Below are positions 3,300 to 41,165 of a stretch of 64,000 bases of DNA, in pieces. The stretch lies in contig CAWDMQ010000002.1 of NCBI GenBank assembly GCA_963803515.1, forward strand, positions 78,163 through 142,162, read 5' to 3'. The stretch is from an uncultured Acidobacteriota bacterium (GTDB taxonomy: Bacteria > Acidobacteriota > Terriglobia > Acidiferrales > UBA7541). The position numbers and the translations under genes are program-made. Under the pieces are notes generated by a model that was given only the letters and a program-made list of their open reading frames with translations, searched no databases and was not told the DNA's origin. Numbering within the stretch: the stretch's first letter is position 1; the number at the start of each line of letters is the position of its first letter.

Positions 3300-4331
3300 T
3301 TATCGAGTGACGTGTTCGCTCGGTACCGCGCGCGGTCGCGATGGGCGTTCCATGTCCTCCATCAAGCGGGCAAACGCCGCAAGGTCGAGCGATTGCTGTC
3401 CGTCCGAAAGCGCGCGTTCCGGGCAAGGATGGACTTCGATCATCAGGCCATCCGCTCCGGCGGCGATCGCGGCGCGGCTCATCGCGGGAATCACGCTGCG
3501 GCGTCCGGTGCCGTGTGAAGGGTCGGCGATAACGGGCAAGTGCGAGAACTCCTTCGCCAACGGGATGGCCGCCACGTCGAACGTGTTGCGCAATTCGGAA
3601 TCAAACGTTTTGATGCCGCGCTCGCAGAGCACCACGTTGGAATTCCCGCCAGACAAAAGATATTCAGCGGCGAGCAGCCATTCCTTGATGGTGGCGGAGG
3701 GGCCGCGTTTGAGCAGCACCGGCAAGCGCGATTGGGCCAGGCGGCGAAGCAGCGGAGAATTCTGCATATTGCGCGCGCCCACTTGCAACATATCCGCATA
3801 TTCCGAGACGACATCCACATCTTCGACGCCCATTACCTCGGTGACGATCGGCAGGCCGGTGGCGTCGCGGGCTTCCTTTAAGAGCTTGAGAGCTTCCACA
3901 CCGAGACCCTGAAAATCGTACGGCGAGGTGCGCGGTTTATACGCCCCCCCGCGGAGAAGCGTAGCGCCGGCTTTCTTGACGCCGTGCGCGACCTCGAGCA
4001 ATTGCTCGCGCGACTCGACCGAGCACGGACCAGCGATCACCACCCACTGCGCGCCGCCAATCAAAACTCCCCCGACGTTCACAACCGTGGGTTCGTGGCG
4101 AAGCTGGCGGCTCACGAGCTTGAAGGGATGCGAAATAGGCACCAGCGCTTCCACGCCCGGGGCCGCTTGCAAGGCCTCCAATTCGCCGCGGCGGCCGTTA
4201 ATTCCCACAGCGCCGATGACGGTGTGGCTCGCGCCACGGATCACGTGCGCCTGGTAGCCGCATTCCTTGATGCGCTGCACGACATGCTCAATCTGTTCTT
4301 CGGTAGCGGTCGGACTCATATTCACGATCAT
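3300..4331 (-). CDS. aroF: 3-deoxy-7-phosphoheptulonate (DAHP) synthase, type I-beta with an N-terminal ferredoxin-like/ACT-like regulatory domain
   Basis: KDO8P/DAHP synthase I-beta motifs ([44 protein letters not shown]). Start set at ATG 4331 (MIVNMSPT), which has GGAGG about 10 nt upstream. The longer ORF reaching 4523 is an in-frame read-through of the leader. Confidence 0.9.
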
Positions 4332-7254: not shown

Positions 7255-7538
7255 CGAAATTAGGACACTAGCGGGAATCTACTCTTGTTGACACTGTGGC
7301 GCGAGGACCGATACAGTAGGGAGCGCGTGGAATGATACGAGAAGGGGCACTGCAACGCTGAACCGATTCGAGCATGACGGGTGCGAATTAGATTGGTGAG
7401 CCGCAAGATGCGCTACATGGGTAAAATAGCCGGGACTTGTTCGAAGCGCACGCGAATTACGCCGCCCCTTACGGGGGCGTGGGTATTTTCTGGCGCGGGG
7501 TGCGGCTAGACGGAGATAAAGCCAGCAAGCATCTCGAT

Positions 7539-7573
7539 CCCGCCGCCAGAAAACGACTGGCAGGCGGGTTTTT
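7539..7573 (+). terminator. intrinsic terminator
   Basis: CCCGCC(G)CCAG-7 nt loop-CTGG(CA)GGCGGG followed by TTTTT. It lies 285 nt after the islet gene and 120 nt before asd. Confidence 0.65.
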
Positions 7574-7692
7574 CATTTTATGAAGTGAGATGTGTCCGGC
7601 CGGGTGCTGCGTCGCCTGCACGCGGCGCAACGTTGCAGCAGCAATTTCAGAAAGAATTTCAGACTTACAGCAGCAATTCAGACAAGGATGGT

Positions 7693-8832
7693 ATGGCGCA
7701 AATGACACCGCAAATGAAAGCGAAAATGGCGGGCGACGAAAAATGGCGAGTGGGAATTCTGGGCGCAACCGGTGCCGTGGGCCAGCAGATGATTCAATTG
7801 CTGGCGGAGCATCCCTGGTTCACGATTGCGGAACTGGGCGCGTCGGAGCGTTCGGCGGGCAAGCCCTACCGCACGGCGGTGCATTGGAACCTGAACGGCT
7901 CGTTTCCGAGCAGCGTGGGTAACCTGGTGGTCAAGGCTGCCGCGCCGCCACTCGATTGCGATTTCGTGCTGTCCGCACTGGATTCGGGCGTGGCTGGGCC
8001 CATTGAAGAGGAATTCGCGCGCGCGGGCTATCCGGTCATCAGCAACAGCAAGAACCATCGCATGGCGGAAGACGTGCCGCTGGTAATACCGGAAATAAAC
8101 GCGGATCATCTCGATCTGATCGCGACGCAGCGGTCGCGGCGCGGATTTACCAGCGGCTATCTGGTGACGAATCCGAATTGCTCGACGGTAGGGCTGGCGA
8201 TGGCACTCGCTCCGCTCGATCGGGCTTTCGGGATCGCGGAAGTGTTCGTGGTTACGATGCAGGCGATATCGGGGGCGGGGTACCCCGGCGTGGCGTCACT
8301 CGACATACTGGACAACGTCATCCCGCACATCGGCGGAGAGGAAGAAAAAGTCCAGACGGAGCCGCGCAAAATTCTCGGCCGCCTGGCTGACGGAGCGGTG
8401 ACATTTTCGGAGATGAAGGTGAGCGCACACTGCAACCGCGTGCACGTTCTGGATGGCCACACGCAATCGGTGAGCGTTCGTCTGCGCAGGAAAGCCTCGA
8501 TTGCGGAAGTGCGCAACGCTCTTTCCTCGTTTACGGGCGAGCCGCAGAAGCTGCGTCTGCCATCGGCTCCCGAACACCCGATCGTGGTTACTGAAGATCC
8601 GGACCGGCCGCAGCCACGTCGGGATCGGGATGCGGGGCGGGGCATGTCGGTGGTGGTCGGACGCATCCGGCCCGATGAAATCATGGACTTCAAGTTCACG
8701 TTGTTGGTGCACAACACGATTCGAGGCGCCGCCGGGGCGGCCATCCTGAATGCGGAACTGCTGGCGCAACGCAGCGAGTTGCCGCACCGGGACCGCGTAG
8801 AACAGGGCGTTACGGCGGGACATTCTGCGTAG
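7693..8832 (+). CDS. asd: aspartate-semialdehyde dehydrogenase
   Basis: VGILGATGAVGQ Rossmann start, the active-site region NPNCSTV, and QAISGAGY. Start chosen at ATG 7693 (AAGGA 5 nt upstream); in-frame ATGs through 7726 are also possible, and the ORF opens at 7585. Confidence 0.85.
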   Translation: MAQMTPQMKAKMAGDEKWRVGILGATGAVGQQMIQLLAEHPWFTIAELGASERSAGKPYRTAVHWNLNGSFPSSVGNLVVKAAAPPLDCDFVLSALDSGVAGPIEEEFARAGYPVISNSKNHRMAEDVPLVIPEINADHLDLIATQRSRRGFTSGYLVTNPNCSTVGLAMALAPLDRAFGIAEVFVVTMQAISGAGYPGVASLDILDNVIPHIGGEEEKVQTEPRKILGRLADGAVTFSEMKVSAHCNRVHVLDGHTQSVSVRLRRKASIAEVRNALSSFTGEPQKLRLPSAPEHPIVVTEDPDRPQPRRDRDAGRGMSVVVGRIRPDEIMDFKFTLLVHNTIRGAAGAAILNAELLAQRSELPHRDRVEQGVTAGHSA

Positions 8833-15331: not shown

Positions 15332-15931
15332 ATGAAATTTAATCGGGCAATTACAGTGGTGGCGCTGGCGGTGGGCTTGGGTTTCACGTTAACGGCGGGC
15401 GCGCAATCCACGACCACCACCGATCCCACGGTCGGGCAGCGCAAGGAAAATCAGCAGGATCGTATCGCGAACGGCGTTCAGAACGGGTCACTCACGCCAG
15501 GGGAGACGTCCAATCTTGAAGGGAAGGAAGCGAAGATCAATAACGAGACGCGGCAGATGCGCAGCGCGGACGATGGTCATTTGACCAGCGCGGACAAGAC
15601 CAAGCTCAACAACCAGCAGAACAGGCTGTCGAACAATATCTACCAGGACAAGCACAATGCCGCATCCGATCAGTTCGGCTCCGGCACGGTGGGGCAGCGC
15701 AAGGAAAACCAACAGGATCGCATCGCGCAGGGTGTGCGCAGCGGCCAGTTGTCCGCCGGCGAGACGCATAACCTGGAAGCCAAACAGCAGGCTCTCAACG
15801 GCGAAACGAACAACATGCGCAAGTTGAACAATGGGAAGTTGAGCGCGGGCGATAAGAAGGTGGTGAACGCGCAGCAGAATAAGCTGTCCAGGAACATCTA
15901 TCGCGATAAGCACAACGGGCGGCGTCAGTAA
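15332..15931 (+). CDS. secreted protein built from two tandem repeats of about 85 aa
   Basis: Signal peptide MKFNRAITVVALAVGLGFTLTAGAQS. The unit GQRKENQQDRIA.GV..G.L..GE..NLE.K......ET..MR....G.L...DK...N.QQN.LS.NIY.DKHN occurs twice (nt about 15430-15660 and 15688-15918). Confidence 0.75.
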   Translation: MKFNRAITVVALAVGLGFTLTAGAQSTTTTDPTVGQRKENQQDRIANGVQNGSLTPGETSNLEGKEAKINNETRQMRSADDGHLTSADKTKLNNQQNRLSNNIYQDKHNAASDQFGSGTVGQRKENQQDRIAQGVRSGQLSAGETHNLEAKQQALNGETNNMRKLNNGKLSAGDKKVVNAQQNKLSRNIYRDKHNGRRQ

Positions 15932-30898: not shown

Positions 30899-31013
30899 GC
30901 GCTCCCCACAGTGAGAAAGGGCACCGGCTGGCCGGTATTGGCACGGGCGATGCCGATGAATATGACGGAGTGTATTATACCGATTGTGGGGTAGAGGAAG
31001 GCAGCGGTGCAGC

Positions 31014-32744
31014 ATGGAACCGGAACTGTTTCCATTATTTCTGAAAATTGCCGCGCGTAAGTGCCTGGTGGTGGGCGGGGGCAAAATCGCGGAAGCGAAG
31101 ATCGCCAGCCTGGTGCGATGCGGAGCGAAGGTGCGGGTGGTGGCTCCCAGCGCGACCGAGGGTATTCGCAGAGCGGCAGAGGCGGGCGCGATCACGTGGG
31201 AGAGGCGCACGTTTGCGCCGAGCGACCTTGCGGATGTTTTCATGGTGATTGCGGCGACATCGTCTCCGGAACTGCACGAGCAAATTTTCCGACAGGCGCA
31301 GCGGGATGGGATTTTGTGCAATGCGGTCGATGAACCCGAACGCTGCGATTTTTACTATCCGGCGGTGGTGCGGCGCGGAGCCTTACAGATTGCGATTTCG
31401 ACGGGCGGGCGCGCTCCTGCGCTTGCCCAGCGGTTACGGCAGGATTTGGAAGCGCAGTTCGGGGCGGCGTATGGGACGTGGGTTGAAGAACTGGGGCGCG
31501 CGCGCGGCGAATTGATGAATCAGGAGATGGTTCCTGAGGAACGACAGGAATTGCTGCGGGGGATGGTGAGCCACCGAGCGTTCGAGGTGTTCAAGCAGTC
31601 GCTGGGCAAAACGGATGCAGGGGCGGCTTTGCAAGCGAATGGCGGGGATACCGAGAACGATTCGAAGAACGATTCGCAACACGATTCTCAACTCCATGCG
31701 AAGAATGACATGGAGAGTAAGGACCACCGCGGCAAAGTTTATTTCCTCGGTGCCGGGCCGGGCGATCCGGAATTGCTGACGCGCAGGGCCTGGAAAATTC
31801 TGCGAAGCGCCGACGTGGTGTTGCACGATGCACTGGTGGCGCCCGAGGTTATAAAGCTGGCGCGGGAAGGTGCGACGGTGTGCGACGTGGGTAAGCGCTG
31901 CGGGCAGAAATCGATCACCCAGGAGGAGATACACGCGTTGATGATTGCGCATGCTTCGGAGGGGCGCACGGTAGTGCGCTTGCAGGGCGGCGATCCTCTG
32001 ATTTTTGGCCGGGCCGGTGAGGAGATGAGCGCGTTGCAGGCGGCTGGAATTAATTTCGAGATTGTGCCGGGAGTCACCGCCGCTTCGGCGGCGGCGGCGG
32101 CCGTGCGCATCCCGCTGACGGACCGGAGGCTCGCATCGACGTTGATTTTTGCCAGTGCGCACCGGCGGGCAGGGAATGCGCCAGAGAATTCCATGGACAC
32201 ACAAAATGCAGATGAGAGGGGGAGTGGCGGAGCGGCCGGAGCGGCGATGGAAGATGCCGGGGTGGGAGAGGCGGCAACCGAGGATGCTTCGGGGAATGCG
32301 GCTGGAGATACCGCGGAGAATGGGACGGGCAATGCGGCGACAATGAAGAGCGGGGCACGGCAGCGACCAAATGCGGGGCTGCCGGGTGCGTCGGTACTGG
32401 TTGCGTCGCCGAATGTTGGCGGCGCCGGTACCACGCTGGCGATCTACATGCCGGGTTTGAACTATGGCAGGATCGCGCGCGATCTGCTGGAGGCAGGCTG
32501 GGCTGCGGATACGAATTGCGTGGTTGTCTCGCAGGCTTCGACGGCGCAACAACGGGTTTGCCGCGCGCAAATCGGGTCGTTGTCTCAGGCGGAACGGTTA
32601 CCTGCGCCGGCAATACTTATCGTTGGCGACGTGGCGGGAACGGCGTTGGGGAGCGGTTCGGATCAAGCTGCACATGAAGAGAACGGCAGGCAGCCGGATG
32701 AAGGGGCAACAATCGTAACGAACGTGGCTTCTTCTATGAGGTAA
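31014..32744 (+). CDS. cysG: siroheme synthase (precorrin-2 dehydrogenase/ferrochelatase domain fused to uroporphyrinogen-III C-methyltransferase) with low-complexity insertions
   Basis: N-terminal LVVGGGKIAEAKI Rossmann motif. C-terminal SUMT motifs VYFLGAGPGDPELLT and VVRLQGGDPLIFGRAGEE. A linker with three 12-nt tandem repeats (31653-31688) and an insertion of about 60-80 aa rich in A/G/D/E/N (about 32170-32430). Confidence 0.85.
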   Translation: MEPELFPLFLKIAARKCLVVGGGKIAEAKIASLVRCGAKVRVVAPSATEGIRRAAEAGAITWERRTFAPSDLADVFMVIAATSSPELHEQIFRQAQRDGILCNAVDEPERCDFYYPAVVRRGALQIAISTGGRAPALAQRLRQDLEAQFGAAYGTWVEELGRARGELMNQEMVPEERQELLRGMVSHRAFEVFKQSLGKTDAGAALQANGGDTENDSKNDSQHDSQLHAKNDMESKDHRGKVYFLGAGPGDPELLTRRAWKILRSADVVLHDALVAPEVIKLAREGATVCDVGKRCGQKSITQEEIHALMIAHASEGRTVVRLQGGDPLIFGRAGEEMSALQAAGINFEIVPGVTAASAAAAAVRIPLTDRRLASTLIFASAHRRAGNAPENSMDTQNADERGSGGAAGAAMEDAGVGEAATEDASGNAAGDTAENGTGNAATMKSGARQRPNAGLPGASVLVASPNVGGAGTTLAIYMPGLNYGRIARDLLEAGWAADTNCVVVSQASTAQQRVCRAQIGSLSQAERLPAPAILIVGDVAGTALGSGSDQAAHEENGRQPDEGATIVTNVASSMR

Positions 32745-32879: not shown

Positions 32880-32907
32880 TTGCATTTGAATGGCTTTCAA
32901 GTATGCT
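32880..32907 (+). promoter_or_regulatory. candidate sigma70-type promoter of the sbp-cysTWA leader
   Basis: TTGCAT (32880-32885), 16-nt spacer, TATGCT (32902-32907). Confidence 0.45.
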
Positions 32908-32926
32908 TGAGCCCGTGAAACTGCAT

Positions 32927-32998
32927 ATGTCGCAAGCCTGCGCGTGTTGTACCCCCTGTTGCCGTTGTGTGTCTTCTGGCGCGAAGGGGCTGACCTAG
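32927..32998 (+). CDS. Cys-rich leader ORF (23 aa) upstream of sbp
   Basis: ATG 32927 to TAG 32998 gives MSQACACCTPCCRCVSSGAKGLT, with 6 Cys codons among codons 5-14. It is homologous to the small ORF upstream of sat. Confidence 0.6.
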   Translation: MSQACACCTPCCRCVSSGAKGLT

Positions 32999-33025
32999 AA
33001 AATTTATCCAAATCAGCGCTCCTTG

Positions 33026-33070
33026 AACCCACCGCCAGAGACGATCTGGGAGGTGGGTTTTTTGTTGTTG
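33026..33070 (+). terminator. intrinsic terminator (attenuator) in the sbp leader
   Basis: AACCCACCGCCAGA-GACGA-TCTGGGAGGTGGGTT followed by TTTTTTGTTGTT, 70 nt upstream of the sbp start. Confidence 0.75.
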
Positions 33071-37235: not shown

Positions 37236-37931
37236 CTATTCCTTGACGTGCAGGCCGCATTCGGTTTTGTTGAATCCAGACCAGCGCCCGGCGCGGGGAT
37301 CTTCGCCCGGCTGCACGGGACGCGTGCAGTAGGTGCAGCCGATGCTGGGATAATTCTGATCGTGCAGGGGATTATAGGGCACGCTGTTTTCGCGGATGTA
37401 ATCCCACACCTGGGCGGAAGTCCAGTCGGCCAGCGGATTGAGTTTTACCAAGCCGAATTTCGCGTCCCACTCGAGTTTTTTTGTGTTGGCACGGGTGGGA
37501 GCCTGATCGCGGCGAACTCCCGTAACCCAGGCCCGCAGCCCCGACAGGTGTTTCTTCAGCGGCTCGACTTTACGCACGTTGCAGCATTGATCGGGATGCG
37601 AGGCCCACAATGCGGGGCCGAACTTGTCAGCCTGCGCCTCGGGGGTGAACTCCGGGCGAGTGCGCTCGACTTCGAGGCCGTACTGCTTTTCTACGCCTTC
37701 GATCAGCGCGTAGGTTTCGGGGAAAAGGAAATCGGTGTCCAGTGTGAACACTCGAAACTTTTTGCCCAGGCGTGCTGCGAGGTCGATCAGCACGACGTCC
37801 TCGGCGCCAAAACTGGAGGCCACGCCCAGCGTCTGGTCAAATTGCGACAGTCCCCATTGCAAGGCCTGGCCCGGGTTCCAACTCTCTGCTTCCGCTTGCA
37901 ACTCGATCACCTGCTGTTCGCGCGCGTCCAT
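37236..37931 (-). CDS. cysH: assimilatory adenylylsulfate (APS)/PAPS reductase, Fe-S cluster type
   Basis: PAPS_reduct fold, C-terminal ECGLH, plus the CC...CxxC cluster ligand pattern (DQCCNVRKVEPL, SIGCTYCT) typical of APS-specific enzymes. No APS kinase gene is present in the locus. Confidence 0.85.
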   Translation of the reverse strand: MDAREQQVIELQAEAESWNPGQALQWGLSQFDQTLGVASSFGAEDVVLIDLAARLGKKFRVFTLDTDFLFPETYALIEGVEKQYGLEVERTRPEFTPEAQADKFGPALWASHPDQCCNVRKVEPLKKHLSGLRAWVTGVRRDQAPTRANTKKLEWDAKFGLVKLNPLADWTSAQVWDYIRENSVPYNPLHDQNYPSIGCTYCTRPVQPGEDPRAGRWSGFNKTECGLHVKE

Positions 37932-38020
37932 GCATTCCTCCCGGAGTTAAACTTTACGATTTTTTCTAAGTGCGAATAGGTTGCTGCACGAGTTCAACGG
38001 CCTCGACTGCGCTCGATATT

Positions 38021-39262
38021 TCAATGGTATCGACTGGGCTCGACGGGTTGAACGGGCTCACGGGCCTCCCGCGCCGCGTCGGACAAGATGGCCGCGATTT
38101 CCGGGCGCGTGAATTCCACGGGGAGCGGCAGGCCTTCCCGCAGGCGGCGCCGCACTTCCGTGCCGCTCAGTATCAAGTGATCCGATACGGGGTGAGCGCA
38201 GGTGCGGTTGCTGGCCATCGAGCTGCAGCGGCGGCAGTAGAAAATTTCGTTGAAACAGATGGGTTCGATTCCCAGACCCTCGCTGGCGAGAGAGCGAAGC
38301 AGATGCTGGGCATCGAATGCGCCGTAATAACCGCCCATGCCGGCATGATCGCGGCCCACCAGGAAATGGGTGCAGCCGAAATTTCTGCGCACGACCGCGT
38401 GCAGGACGGCTTCGCGAGGACCGCCATAGCGCATCCAGGCGGGGAGCACGGCAAACAGGACGTTTTGACGCGGCAAATACTCGTTCAGGAGTGCCTGGTA
38501 ACAGCGCATGCGCACGTCGGCGGGGATGTCCTCGGGACGGGTTTCGCCGACCAGCGGATGGAGCAGCAGGCCGTCGGTGACTTCGAGTGCGGTGCGCAAT
38601 ACGTATTCGTGAGCGCGATGCACGGGGTTGCGTGTTTGAAAGCCGGCCACGGTCTTCCACCCGCGCTGCGCCATGGCGGCACGCGTTTCACGAGGAGTGA
38701 GCCAGTGTTCATCAAGGCCCAGCGCCGCGGTATCGCCAAACCATTCGATTTTGCCTGCGAGCGAAACGTCGCCCCCGCTCAAGAAACCCGCGACGCCAGG
38801 GTGGGCCGCTTCGGGGGTGCCGAACAGCTTCTTCGCCCAGTCGAGTTGCGGGATTGCGAATGACTCTTCGAAGTGGAGAATGGCGAGTGGCTGACCATTA
38901 TATTTGAGCGTGACATCAGTGTGCGGCCGCAGGGCTTTGGCATTCGCGGCCTCGGTCTGCAGGAGGATGGGGAACGGCCAGACCTTCCCATCGGGCAAAC
39001 GCATATTTTCAACGATGCCGGCCGACGTCTGGAAATCGGTGAAGCCTTCGAGGGGGCTGAAGGCGCCGGTGGCGAGGAGTAGCAGGTCGCTCGCGGCGCG
39101 GGAATTCAATTCGACGGCGGGCAGATGGGCGGCGCGGGCGATGGTCTCCGGTTGAGCTTCCTTGGGAACGACGCGATCAACCAAGTTATCCGTGCGCAAG
39201 TTATTCGTATGGGTGTTGGTATTGCTCTGGGTGTCAGCGGGATTTGCGGATACGGTTTCCAT
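38021..39262 (-). CDS. sat: sulfate adenylyltransferase (ATP sulfurylase)
   Basis: QTRNPVHRAHEY and VGRDHAG motifs, with a PUA-like N-terminal domain. GGAGA 12 nt before ATG 39262. Confidence 0.9.
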   Translation of the reverse strand: METVSANPADTQSNTNTHTNNLRTDNLVDRVVPKEAQPETIARAAHLPAVELNSRAASDLLLLATGAFSPLEGFTDFQTSAGIVENMRLPDGKVWPFPILLQTEAANAKALRPHTDVTLKYNGQPLAILHFEESFAIPQLDWAKKLFGTPEAAHPGVAGFLSGGDVSLAGKIEWFGDTAALGLDEHWLTPRETRAAMAQRGWKTVAGFQTRNPVHRAHEYVLRTALEVTDGLLLHPLVGETRPEDIPADVRMRCYQALLNEYLPRQNVLFAVLPAWMRYGGPREAVLHAVVRRNFGCTHFLVGRDHAGMGGYYGAFDAQHLLRSLASEGLGIEPICFNEIFYCRRCSSMASNRTCAHPVSDHLILSGTEVRRRLREGLPLPVEFTRPEIAAILSDAAREAREPVQPVEPSRYH

Positions 39263-39351
39263 TCTTCTGTGGTCTCCGTGATGAATGCGATTGAGAATCG
39301 TCTTGCGTTATAACGCGATCTTGCTGATGGCAGCCACCCTTGCAGGCGGCC

Positions 39352-39394
39352 AAAAACAAAAAACCCACCGGCCGGTTTTTCCTTTGGCGGTGGG
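39352..39394 (-). terminator. intrinsic terminator (attenuator) in the sat-cysH leader
   Basis: Minus strand CCCACCGCC-AAAGGAAAAACC-GGCCGGTGGG followed by TTTTTTGTTTTT, 90 nt upstream of the sat start. Confidence 0.75.
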
Positions 39395-39428
39395 CTCAAA
39401 CTGATGCTTTGAATTCGGAGCTAGTTCG

Positions 39429-39524
39429 TCACCTCGCCTTGCCAGAGGATGCCGCCAGACAGCGACAACAGGCGCAACACGAACCCGGACAGCGGTTGCA
39501 GGACTTGGTAAGGTGAAGAAACAT
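39429..39524 (-). CDS. Cys-rich leader ORF (31 aa) upstream of sat
   Basis: Minus-strand ATG 39524 to TGA 39429 gives MFLHLTKSCNRCPGSCCACCRCLAASSGKAR, with 7 Cys codons. It shares the core CC-x-CCRC-[VL]..SSG.K with the sbp leader ORF. Confidence 0.6.
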   Translation of the reverse strand: MFLHLTKSCNRCPGSCCACCRCLAASSGKAR

Positions 39525-39537
39525 CGTTGCGAAGTCT

Positions 39538-39567
39538 AAGATAGCGTTGGGCGTAAGTCAAGGTCAA
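39538..39567 (-). promoter_or_regulatory. candidate sigma70-type promoter of the sat-cysH leader
   Basis: Minus strand TTGACC (39567-39562), 18-nt spacer, TATCTT (39543-39538). The small-ORF ATG is 14 nt downstream of the -10. Confidence 0.45.
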
Positions 39568-39741
39568 AGGTGGCCGTTTGCAGGAGATTGCGGGCCACAG
39601 CTGTAGCGCGGATGGGCAGCGTAGGACATGGGCTTTACTGGCGCCCGAGCGCCGAGGTGCGGCCGTCGAGGTGACATCCCCACTGGCCGCATCGGCGCCG
39701 CGACTTCGGTGGTAAAGTGACCCGAGTGGGCGATCAACGAT

Positions 39742-39789
39742 GAAATTATGGGTGAAATTATGGGAGAAATTACGGGTGAAATATGGCGG
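39742..39789. repeat. four tandem copies of a 12-nt unit (GAAATTATGGGT)
   Basis: GAAATTATGGGT, GAAATTATGGGA, GAAATTACGGGT, GAAATATGGCGG. Located in the intergenic region between the sat leader promoter and the Znf-UBP gene. Confidence 0.8.
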
Positions 39790-39908
39790 ACCAAGTCGGG
39801 CGTGATGCGTCGCGCGTTTATTCCTCAGTGTTTTATCAAGGGTATTTTATGAGGGTACTTTTACAGGGCGTTTGATGAGGCCAGGGTACTTTGCAAGGAG
39901 GAATGGTT

Positions 39909-40169
39909 ATGGCGACTTCCTGCGTACATGTGAAAGAAATTCGTAAAGTGACACCGAGTGGCAACGGGTGCAAGGAATGTCTCGCGATGGGAGATGACTG
40001 GGTGCATCTGCGCTTGTGCCTCACATGCGGCCATGTAGGCTGCTGCGATAGTTCGAAGAACAAACATGCGACCAAGCACTTTCACCAGACGAAGCACCCG
40101 ATCATTCAGTCGTTCGAGCCTGGGGAAGATTGGCGCTGGTGTTACGTGGATGAGGTCGAGTTGGATTAA
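39909..40169 (+). CDS. UBP-type zinc-finger protein
   Basis: CxxC/H-rich pattern C.ECLAMGDDWVHLRLCLTCGHVGCCDSSKNKHATKHFHQTKHP, typical of Znf-UBP. Start at ATG 39909, 7 nt after AAGGAGG. Confidence 0.8.
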   Translation: MATSCVHVKEIRKVTPSGNGCKECLAMGDDWVHLRLCLTCGHVGCCDSSKNKHATKHFHQTKHPIIQSFEPGEDWRWCYVDEVELD

Positions 40170-40268
40170 GCTGCGGCGCTGACACTGAATTGTCAGCTGC
40201 ACAATTTGTGAGTGGGACTGGCCTCGAGCGTGAAGGCTCGTGTGTCGCCTGGCGGGAAGGATCGATAA

Positions 40269-41165
40269 ATGGGGAAGCAGGAAGAGGCCTGGCCGCAATT
40301 GCCGATTGCGGAATGGCAAAGCACGCGCGACACCCTGCACATGTACATGCAGATCGTGGGGAAAATTCGCCTGGCGCTTAGCCCGCGGGTCAATCACTGG
40401 TGGGAAGTGCCTCTCTATGTCACGGCGCGTGGCCTGACGACTTCCCCGATCCCTTACGAGGCGGAAATCTTCGAAATTGTCTTCGATTTCATCGAACATC
40501 GCGTGATCGTACAAACGAGCGCAGGCGCGGTGAAAGTGATTCCGCTGCGACCTTTGGCGGTGGCGGATTTCTACGAGGAGTTGATGTCCACGCTGCGAGA
40601 GCTGGGGATCGCCGTCAATATCTGGACCAAGCCGTGCGAAGTGCCTGATCCCATCCATTTCGAAGAGGATCGCGTGCATGCCGCATACGATCCGGAATAT
40701 GCGCATCGGTTCTGGCGCGTGCTGGTTGCGACCGACACGGTATTTAAGGAGTTTCGTGCAAGATTTTTAGGGAAGAGCAGCCCCGTTCATTTTTTCTGGG
40801 GAAGCTTCGACATGGCGGTGACACGCTTCTCCGGGCGGCGCGCCCCGGAACGTCCCGGCGCCGACTCGATCACTCGTGAAGCCTATTCGCACGAAGTGAT
40901 CAGCGGCGGATTCTGGCCTGGCACGGGAGAAAACGACGCGACGTATTACGCCTACGCGGCGCCCGAACCTCAGGGATTTGCGAAGGCGACCATTTCTCCG
41001 AGCACTGCTTTTTACTACCCGCAATTGTCGGAATTTCTTCTGCCATATGAGGATGTCCGCAAGGCGGCGTCACCGCGCCAAGCTGTACTCGCTTTTCTGG
41101 AATCCACGTACGAAACGGGAGCCACTCTGGGGAACTGGGATCGGCAGCAGATAGAGCGAACCTAA
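40269..41165 (+). CDS. conserved hypothetical protein (DUF5996-like by memory of the N-terminal pattern)
   Basis: 298-aa ORF with good protein-like composition (WQSTRDTLHMYMQIVGKIRLALSP..NHWWEVPLYVTARGLTTSPIPY). The family name is from recollection only. Confidence 0.7.
   Translation: MGKQEEAWPQLPIAEWQSTRDTLHMYMQIVGKIRLALSPRVNHWWEVPLYVTARGLTTSPIPYEAEIFEIVFDFIEHRVIVQTSAGAVKVIPLRPLAVADFYEELMSTLRELGIAVNIWTKPCEVPDPIHFEEDRVHAAYDPEYAHRFWRVLVATDTVFKEFRARFLGKSSPVHFFWGSFDMAVTRFSGRRAPERPGADSITREAYSHEVISGGFWPGTGENDATYYAYAAPEPQGFAKATISPSTAFYYPQLSEFLLPYEDVRKAASPRQAVLAFLESTYETGATLGNWDRQQIERT

Follow-up and report, generated by a model that had tools for sequence, protein, structure and literature searches.

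What controls the sat-cysH operon in an uncultured Acidobacteriota bacterium? In the 64,000-nucleotide (nt) stretch of contig CAWDMQ010000002.1 analysed here (hereafter the window), this operon lies on the minus strand (37236..39262; sat 39262-38021, cysH 37931-37236). It is preceded by a small open reading frame (ORF) rich in cysteine (Cys) codons and by a hairpin of the intrinsic-terminator type. A first-pass annotation had proposed that these two elements form an attenuator of sat-cysH, and the proposal is supported by the layout of related loci and by the in-frame enrichment of Cys codons. Judged from the sequence, the element probably controls sat-cysH by ribosome-mediated attenuation of transcription in response to charged tRNA-Cys; we put the probability of this reading at about 0.78.

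Leader ORF, terminator and promoter

The first-pass annotation had described a 31-codon ORF with seven Cys codons at 39524-39429, and exactly such an ORF was found there (Table 1). The Cys codons are codons 9, 12, 16, 17, 19, 20 and 22 (39500-39459), with tandem pairs at 16-17 and 19-20. Among the 481 small ORFs (20-45 codons) of the window, this is the sole one with seven Cys codons; the leader ORF of the sbp operon, described below, is one of two with six. In the leaders as a group, Cys accounts for about 23-24% of the codons, against 1.1% in the long ORFs of the window. It is the most frequent residue in 17 of 18 leaders, and TGY triplets number 97 in the ORF frame versus 29 and 11 in the other two frames. 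The leaders use TGT and TGC in a ratio of 57:40, whereas the long ORFs of the window prefer TGC (36:105). The preference for TGT may tune the sensitivity of the leaders to ribosome stalling.

The hairpin CCCACCGCC..GGCCGGTGGG followed by TTTTTTGTTTTT, placed by the first-pass annotation at 39394-39352, 90 nt before the sat ATG (39262), was likewise recovered. The terminator fold has an energy of -19.4 kcal/mol (z-score -2.8) and a U-tract of the form U6GU5. The built-in terminator scan missed this hairpin because its loop is longer than 8 nt. CCCACC/GGTGGG and the T-run are invariant across 13 leaders, and the terminators of the family lie 76-90 nt upstream of the sat ribosome-binding site. 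The only minus-strand ORF upstream of the sat leader (39861-40706, 281 codons) had no match in a Pfam search; it runs opposite to zf-UBP (39909-40169) and DUF5996 (40269-41165), both of them supported genes of the plus strand. It was therefore rejected as a gene. As the first-pass annotation had held, no protein-coding gene lies upstream on this strand, and the hairpin would thus terminate no upstream gene.

The assignment of the promoter had to be revised. The pair TTGACC-18-TATCTT, named in the first-pass annotation, is present at 39567-39538, but it was set aside, since the pair conserved in relatives is TTGACT-17-TAGACT. In the loci L154-L158, the TTGACT -35 element and the 17-nt spacer are invariant and the -10 element follows TAnAnT. 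The promoter scan by itself was at background (2 sites versus 2.2 expected). The -10 element (39533) ends 8 nt before the leader ATG, and no sequence resembling a Shine-Dalgarno was found at -17 to -5 of this ATG. This spacing and the lack of a Shine-Dalgarno suggest that the sat leader is probably leaderless, or has a 5' untranslated region (UTR) as short as 1-4 nt. In 13 of 16 leaders, 6-11 nt separate the -10 element of the best promoter from the start codon, and no Shine-Dalgarno-like sequence is seen. The leaders of L165 and L160b (see below) differ in having a longer UTR that carries GGAG or AGGA. The sat and sbp genes themselves have ordinary Shine-Dalgarno sequences.

The contigs compared with the window encode Sat proteins 58-85% identical to that of the window. 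The same layout stands before sat or sir in 12 further distinct Acidobacteriota leaders from 10 distinct contigs (loci L154, L155, L156, L157, L158, L159, L160, L161-L164, L165-L167, L168, L074 and L169). These include metagenome-assembled genomes (MAGs) of Acidiferrales and, in L169, one of Thermoanaerobaculia. The elements follow in the order promoter, small ORF, 26-43 nt, and CCCACC..GGTGGG hairpin with T-run; the gene downstream is either sat or the sulfite-reductase gene heading a sir-sat-tauE-cysH operon. Orthologous leader ORFs with 5-12 Cys codons were found in L154-L161, L165, L168, L074 and L169. From leader to leader there are differences in Cys count (5-12), in Cys spacing, in the length of the ORF (26-39 codons) and in its frame at the stop codon; L156 and L157 have the stop in another frame or position but keep the neighbouring nucleotides. 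Such variation argues for selection on the codons and the RNA, not on the protein.

Sat relatives at 43-59% identity, taken from contig scans, mostly lack this leader family. L074, L094 and the Chloroflexota loci came from these scans. Leaders of the same design with unrelated terminator sequences were found before sulfur operons at five places. L160b, a second leader of L160 (4960-5058), precedes sir-sat-tauE; that of L094, an unassigned metagenome contig, precedes sat; and those of L004, L011 and L026, loci of Chloroflexota (Dehalococcoidia) MAGs, precede tauE/cysH-cysC-sat. The poly-Cys ORFs of L004, L011, L026 and L094 (e.g. MISRASVCCCCCTSEG.., MRHTCFCMCCCRTEE.. and ..RMCCCCASV..) are followed by an intrinsic terminator, and their promoter-to-ORF gap is 7-10 nt where the promoter region is available. 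Over all loci examined, a Cys cluster combined with a terminator was matched 29 times, in 25 cases on the same strand as the sulfur genes.

Tandem attenuator units were observed before sir in two relatives. L074 (446-700) has two small ORFs with Cys codons, each with its own terminator. In L169 (2260-2670) the first unit is a 12-codon ORF (MTNVLRMCWGCR) and a terminator; the second is a leader in which six Cys codons stand in a row, with a CCCACCGCC terminator.

The window itself holds a paralogous leader, which precedes sbp-cysTWA on the plus strand. The first-pass annotation had regarded the sat leader as a second copy of this layout, and the architecture shared with relatives agrees with that view. 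The sbp leader ORF runs from GTG 32915 (or ATG 32903 / 32927) to 32998 and ends in ..MSQACACCTPCCRCVSSGAKGLT. Its promoter, TTGCAT-16-TATGCT, ends 7 nt before GTG 32915, and translation may start at this GTG rather than at ATG 32903 or ATG 32927. With a covariance model built from 12 leaders, the sbp leader scored 83 bits; it was one of the sequences on which the model had been trained. Directly upstream of this leader is the end of a cysG-like siroheme synthase gene (30984-32744).

Predicted switching between antiterminator and terminator

How could translation of the ORF act on the hairpin? When the sat leader transcript was folded without the terminator 3' arm, 39449-39431 (UCCUCUGGC..GGCGAGGU) paired with 39395-39380. 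The latter is the 5' arm and loop of the terminator, which thus doubles as the 3' strand of the predicted antiterminator. The helix, UCCU/UGGC/GG/G/GGU with GCC/C/CC/GCCA/AGGA, encloses a middle hairpin, the sequence of which is kept in sat-type leaders whatever the reading frame. The full-length transcript, in turn, folds into the terminator.

The first-pass annotation had pointed to CTGGCGG (39458-39452) in the 3' half of the ORF as complementary to CCGCCA (39390-39385). The complementarity is there, but 39449-39431 is the antiterminator strand better supported by folding and by comparison across species. CTGGCGG was rejected as the main strand because, in the window, a predicted local hairpin (39450..39467), found in the minimum-energy folds of both the truncated and the full-length transcript, holds most of it, and because it would also be covered by a ribosome on the last Cys codons. 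In L157 and L159 CTGGCGG is plausible as the antiterminator strand.

The antiterminator duplex of the window has an energy of -17.3 kcal/mol. When ORF strands and terminator arms were permuted among the leaders, the cognate pairs summed to -284.9 kcal/mol versus -244.7 +/- 9.8 kcal/mol for non-cognate pairs (p=4e-5), and the difference persisted after removal of close duplicates (p=3e-4). Dinucleotide shuffles of the single leaders supported the pairing less strongly: 0-110 of 500 were as good as the native sequence. Matched changes in the ORF tail and the terminator arm are seen in L074, L161 and L169 (Table 1). The recurrent 'SSG' near the C-terminus of the peptides is the coding image of the UCUGG strand.

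The position of this strand relative to the codons fits a switch driven by the ribosome. All 13 leaders have it downstream of the Cys cluster and ahead of the stop codon. In the window it spans -18..0 nt from the stop codon, so that a ribosome at the stop would cover 39449-39431, and it is left free with the A site on six of the seven Cys codons. Ribosome masking was simulated by forcing a 28-nt footprint unpaired on a transcript truncated before the terminator 3' arm. For the window leader, the predicted probability that the terminator 5' arm is paired was 0.80-0.88 with the A site on codons 2-21, versus 0.35-0.70 with the A site from codon 23 to the stop. The shift went in the same direction in all nine leaders tested.

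For the start of transcription, the translation of the ORF, the stalling and the regulatory outcome, we infer the following course of events. Transcription from TTGACT-17-TAGACT would begin at or a few nt from ATG 39524, and translation would be leaderless or near-leaderless. When Cys-tRNA is plentiful, the ribosome would pass the seven Cys codons to the stop (39431-39429) and cover the G-rich codons at 39449-39431. The C-rich segment 39395-39380, thus freed, would pair with GGCCGGUGGG to form the terminator, and the polymerase would halt 90 nt before sat, in the U-tract (39363-39352). Under a shortage of Cys-tRNA, the ribosome would stall on the Cys codons (39500-39459), and the exposed G-rich strand would capture the 5' arm and loop of the emerging terminator. 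The terminator would then be blocked, and transcription would read through into sat-cysH. Since sbp-cysTWA in the window and sir operons in relatives carry paralogous leaders, the genes of sulfate assimilation would respond together.

Table 1. Coordinates and sequences of the sat leader, its copies in the window and related leaders (positions of L loci are those of each locus)
Feature	Position	Strand	Sequence and remarks
sat leader ORF, 31 codons + TGA	39429..39524	-	MFLHLTKSCNRCPGSCCACCRCLAASSGKAR; ATG 39524, TGA 39431-39429; 7 Cys codons
Putative sigma-70-type promoter	39533..39561	-	TTGACT (39561-39556), 17-nt spacer, TAGACT (39538-39533); promoter scan
Predicted local hairpin	39450..39467	-	UGUCGCU (Cys codons 20-22; 39467-39461) pairs with GGCGGCA (39456-39450)
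Proposed antiterminator 5' strand	39431..39449	-	UCCUCUGGCAAGGCGAGGU; last 7 codons and first base of stop
Middle hairpin	39397..39428	-	CGAACU..AGUUUG; between stop codon and terminator; predicted in all folds
Intrinsic terminator	39352..39396	-	stem AGCCCACCGCC..GGCCGGUGGGUU (39396-39362), U-tract TTTTTTGTTTTT (39363-39352)
Paralogous leader before sbp-cysTWA	32880..33069	+	TTGCAT-16-TATGCT promoter; terminator 33028-33069
Third module copy, before asd-like gene	7408..7579 (region 7381-7580)	+	covariance-model match 7475-7576
Leader peptide, L154			MFGHTNKIATCCACLCCRCCACCRCLAALCGEVR
Leader peptide, L155			MFVVTLKSCRPCLCACCPCRRCRTVSLGLRQWVV
Leader peptide, L156			VFVQNSCGYACTPPCRCLCGSWRGELTN
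Leader peptide, L157			MFFHQARPCIRCNCVCCPCCCCLAAT
Leader peptide, L158			MFVRPNKMCMRCPCLCRLCCPCCRCLAALFGKVR
Leader peptide, L159			MIANTTAMFMGCQSCCCTCCMPTSGGLRCVRD
Leader peptide, L160			MRCEMESRAQKTPTIGCSMCCCMGTSSGAGRLLT
Leader peptide, L161			MNDQIQKTACCCGVVCCCIMCCCAPCCCMPASSGGILTS
Leader peptide, L165			MFDPSQDGRCARCMCCGVCCRTVPSSGAGD
Leader peptide, L168			MLTHCQKLCCTGCCVCACTCASSGVGRLLT
Leader peptide, L074			MTCNPHQMCCLCGATYVAASGECVHR
Leader peptide, L169			..MCCCCCCRCPPGVYLVASRR
Leader with unrelated terminator, L004	23-175
Leader with unrelated terminator, L011	755-950
Leader with unrelated terminator, L026	955-1150
Leader with unrelated terminator, L094	245-420
Pairing, L161			ORF strand CGUCUUCUGG / terminator arm + loop CCAGAAGACG
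Pairing, L074			ORF strand UGCAUCCGG / terminator arm + loop CCGGAUGCA
Pairing, L160			ORF strand UCCUCUGG / terminator arm + loop CCAGAGGA
Pairing, L158			ORF strand GCGCUCU / terminator arm + loop AGAGCGC
Pairing, window sbp			ORF strand GUCU(U)CUGGCG / terminator arm + loop CGCCAGAGAC
Pairing, L169			ORF strand CCGGCG / terminator arm + loop CGCCGG

Weighing of the readings

Several observations weigh against an attenuator that responds to charged tRNA-Cys. The antiterminator of the sat leader is among the weakest of the set, ranking 7 of 13, and 42 of 500 shuffles were as good. Column-wise covariation on MAFFT alignments of the terminator and antiterminator was not significant and did not exceed the shuffle controls; in these alignments the stems are mostly invariant or register-shifted. 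The strand that pairs best is found 14-30 nt upstream of the stop in 4 of 13 leaders, and there a ribosome parked at the stop would cover it incompletely. At the equilibrium of the full-length transcript the terminator wins at any ribosome position in six of nine leaders, that of the window included; any switch would therefore have to be kinetic. With no Shine-Dalgarno before it, the leader ORF relies for its translation on leaderless or near-leaderless initiation. The -10 element and the start codon are 6-11 nt apart, a distance suggestive of such initiation, yet a little long for transcription to start at the A of the ATG.

A further point of this kind is a third copy of the same terminator/antiterminator module, which precedes an asd-like gene of the window (7585-8832; likely start ATG 7694) with a leader of just two Cys codons. 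This copy matched the covariance model at 43.3 bits (E=3.5e-8), and its sequence was outside the training set. The leader ORF, MRYMGKIAGTCSKRTRITPPLTGAWVFSGAGCG, has many Met, Lys, Ile and Thr codons and a PP pair. The terminator carries a compensatory CCCGCC/GGCGGG stem (z-score -4.6), and the ORF tail UUUUCUGGCG (7486-7495) is perfectly complementary to CGCCAGAAAA (7544-7553). The promoter, TTGACA/TACAGT at 7290-7319, lies ~80 nt upstream, and this leader is therefore not leaderless. Since the module occurs with a leader that is not rich in Cys, the RNA module itself is not Cys-specific. The cassette would be reusable, with its specificity set by the codons of the leader, and in this respect the asd copy supports the attenuator reading. 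In L160 (2924-4949) an aspartate-semialdehyde-dehydrogenase-like (asd-like) gene stands within a sulfur cluster, in the order sir, rhodanese, asd-like gene, then leader-sir-sat-tauE. This arrangement may be related to the presence of a cassette of the same family before the asd-like gene of the window.

The alternatives are less well supported than the attenuation of sat-cysH by charged tRNA-Cys. It is conceivable that the attenuated RNA (~170 nt) or the poly-Cys peptide acts in trans on the sulfur regulon, or that an unknown factor reads the sequence. The C-rich arm (CCCACCGCCAGA) and its G-rich partner are nearly invariant in sat, sbp, sir and asd leaders of two Acidobacteriota classes, the cassette also serves with a leader peptide that is not Cys-rich, and peTrpL, a leader peptide belonging to the Sinorhizobium rnTrpL/peTrpL system, is reported to function in trans (PMC7298713). 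Such an action nevertheless seems unlikely here. Distinctly unlikely is that the ORF senses Cys-tRNA with translational control or Rho-dependent polarity as the output, as has been proposed or shown for polycysteine leaders of actinobacteria, the hairpin being merely a leaky or constitutive terminator. Ms5788A, the one polycysteine leader that has been characterised by experiment, does unmask a ribosome-binding site (10.1101/834739), and the terminator is predicted at equilibrium whatever the position of the ribosome. However, the canonical GC-rich hairpin and the U6GU5 tract are kept in every family member, and changes at the 3' end of the ORF go along with changes in the arm and loop of the terminator rather than in the ribosome-binding site. 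Moreover, in the read-through fold the Shine-Dalgarno of sat (39277-39274), which has the terminator 76 nt upstream, does not pair stably with any part of the leader, and control at the ribosome-binding site is therefore disfavoured.

The ORF might instead encode a micro-protein rich in Cys and functional in itself, such as a metal- or redox-binding peptide, with its own promoter and terminator and with a linkage to sat-cysH that reflects co-function. The conserved ORF, the recurrent MF.. N-termini and ..SSG.. C-terminal motifs, the strong promoter of its own and the precedent of peTrpL would speak for a product. We regard this as very unlikely, given that the number of Cys residues (5-12), their spacing and the ORF length are variable and that the C-terminal frame shifts on conserved nucleotides (L156 and L157 versus the window). 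The UCUGG:CCAGA pairing of the RNA accounts for the conserved SSG codons, unrelated poly-Cys ORFs occupy the same position in Chloroflexota, and only the sulfur operon, in the same orientation, comes after the terminator. The conservation of the terminator 5' arm, far beyond the needs of a simple stem, and the presence of the module before asd with a leader not rich in Cys could also indicate a protein- or ligand-binding switch for a sulfur metabolite, made of the C-rich and G-rich segments (CCCACCGCCAGA and UCUGGCG), to which the ORF would be incidental. Rfam covariance models gave no match at the gathering score in the whole window; at E<=10 the two leaders gave no family match beyond chance-level scores (TCV_H4, 17.7 bits against a threshold of 50; nse_sRNA, 14.6 against 75). 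There are just two mutually exclusive helices and no conserved junction or pocket, the conservation of the 5' arm is explained by its dual pairing role, and independent leaders keep the Cys ORF despite different terminator sequences. A switch of this type thus appears very unlikely as well. As for a chance juxtaposition of a Cys-rich ORF and a terminator, promoter-like matches do occur at the background rate in the region, but the ORF is unique in its Cys count among the 481, and the layout is conserved in the 12 further leaders and duplicated in the window; this explanation appears effectively refuted by conservation.

Surroundings, significance and relation to known systems

In a Pfam search, sat was assigned to PF01747 and PF14306 (PUA_2) and cysH to PF01507. 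The operon converges on the plus-strand operon sbp-cysT-cysW-cysA. The METVS start of Sat and the gene order sat-cysH are kept in L154-L158, and the divergent zf-UBP gene is likewise present next to the sat loci of relatives. Soil metagenomes and a 'Candidatus Acidoferrales' MAG hold the nearest Sat proteins (82-85% identity), which assigns the window to Acidobacteriota, class Terriglobia; a look-up of the identical Sat protein found no record.

Further sequence features were observed around the sat leader. A palindrome, GCGTTATAACGC (39307-39318, minus strand), lies between the terminator and the sat ribosome-binding site. At the equivalent site a palindrome or hairpin is found in L154 and L158 (GGATCC..GATCC) and in L157 (CCATGAATG..CATTCATGG); its position is conserved among sat leaders and its sequence is not. 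Upstream, the divergent region between the sat leader promoter and zf-UBP holds two tandem arrays on the plus strand, one of the 12-mer TGAAATTATGGG (39741-39786, 3.9 copies) and one of a 14-mer (39831-39868, 2.8 copies). Tandem repeats were not seen in the upstream regions read of L154-L156, where the intergenic region is shorter. A conserved motif, CACTTTACCACCGAA (39700-39716, minus strand), stands ~150-190 nt upstream of the -35 element of the leader and recurs in L154 (~360-375), L155 (~3590-3606) and L156 (~1880-1895). Its opposite strand, TGGTAAAGT, is an extended -10-like element facing the divergent zf-UBP gene.

Two other Cys-rich reading frames of the window were treated as chance occurrences. 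The minus-strand ORF 15606-15665, MRHCACPGRYCSTACSAGC, lies inside a longer plus-strand ORF (15332-15931); it was not matched in the covariance-model or terminator-motif searches, and no terminator check was made for it. The Cys-rich start (MCPAGCCVAC..) of ORF 7590-7922 belongs to a frame that runs for 110 codons out of frame over asd.

If the attenuator reading is correct, Acidobacteriota, a dominant yet little-studied soil phylum, run the uptake, activation and reduction of sulfate by terminator/antiterminator attenuation keyed to Cys-tRNA, and Chloroflexota apparently use such Cys attenuation independently. Translation of the leader peptide would probably start with no Shine-Dalgarno. The leader would be a natural case for studying the timing of leaderless initiation with transcription. 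It would also provide a cysteine sensor that is compact and portable, and sulfur regulons in metagenomes could be annotated by its sequence signature. If, on the other hand, a trans-acting product or a reading factor were involved, a 'Cys ribulon' driven by the ribosome and spanning the phylum would have this element as its hub and would replace regulators of the CysB or CymR type.

In well-studied bacteria, sulfate assimilation is controlled by proteins such as CysB and CymR or by S-box and T-box RNAs. Leader-peptide attenuators are classically known from enterobacteria (trpL, hisL, leuL, thrL, ilvL and pheL). Like these, the leaders described here combine a short ORF enriched in codons for the end product with an intrinsic terminator before the first structural gene, antiterminator and terminator helices that are predicted to be mutually exclusive, and a stop codon so placed that finished translation would favour the terminator. 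They differ in that cysteine would be the amino acid sensed and that the targets would be sat-cysH, sbp-cysTWA and sir. The classical leaders are led by a Shine-Dalgarno, whereas here there is none and the ORF starts 6-11 nt after the -10 element. Furthermore, no clearly conserved 1:2 'protector' helix was identified in the present leaders. To our knowledge, Cys-sensing leader peptides are experimentally known only from mycobacteria, where they act on translation.

Cys leaders of Acidobacteria or Chloroflexota were not described in the literature that we searched; the coverage was incomplete, and this is absence of evidence only. The nearest counterparts are the leaderless polycysteine short ORFs of mycobacteria, which form a 'Cys ribulon' (Canestrari et al. 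2020; 10.1101/834739; Mol Microbiol 114:93). As in that case, the ORFs are promoter-proximal, carry runs of Cys codons, lack a Shine-Dalgarno and form the first cistron of a cysteine or sulfur operon; several operons per genome are involved, and a coordinated response through ribosome pausing would be expected. In the characterised mycobacterial case, however, a downstream ribosome-binding site is unmasked and no intrinsic terminator is involved, whereas here a conserved terminator is combined with a predicted overlapping antiterminator. The present leaders belong to Acidobacteriota instead of Actinomycetota and have no sequence relationship to the mycobacterial ones. Unlike the leaderless starts of the mycobacterial short ORFs, the start proposed here is a deduction from promoter spacing. 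Candidate Cys leader peptides have also been described for the cys/cbs operons of Actinobacteria (Seliverstov et al. 2005, PMC1262725). Similarly, these short ORFs precede operons for cysteine biosynthesis and have Cys codons in runs close to the stop, but no conserved terminator hairpin was reported for them, and Rho dependence was suggested; here the terminator is the best-conserved part. The uORFC-8-2 motif upstream of cysS in Rhodobacterales is a predicted ribosome-mediated attenuator (Brewer et al. 2021, PMC8632094), where an upstream ORF with Cys codons likewise precedes an intrinsic terminator stem and a U-run. It differs in having only two tandem Cys codons, in preceding a cysteinyl-tRNA synthetase gene and in being alphaproteobacterial. 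The logic of the proposed attenuation at sat-cysH is thus a familiar one, and it is the combination of amino acid, pathway and phylum that is new.

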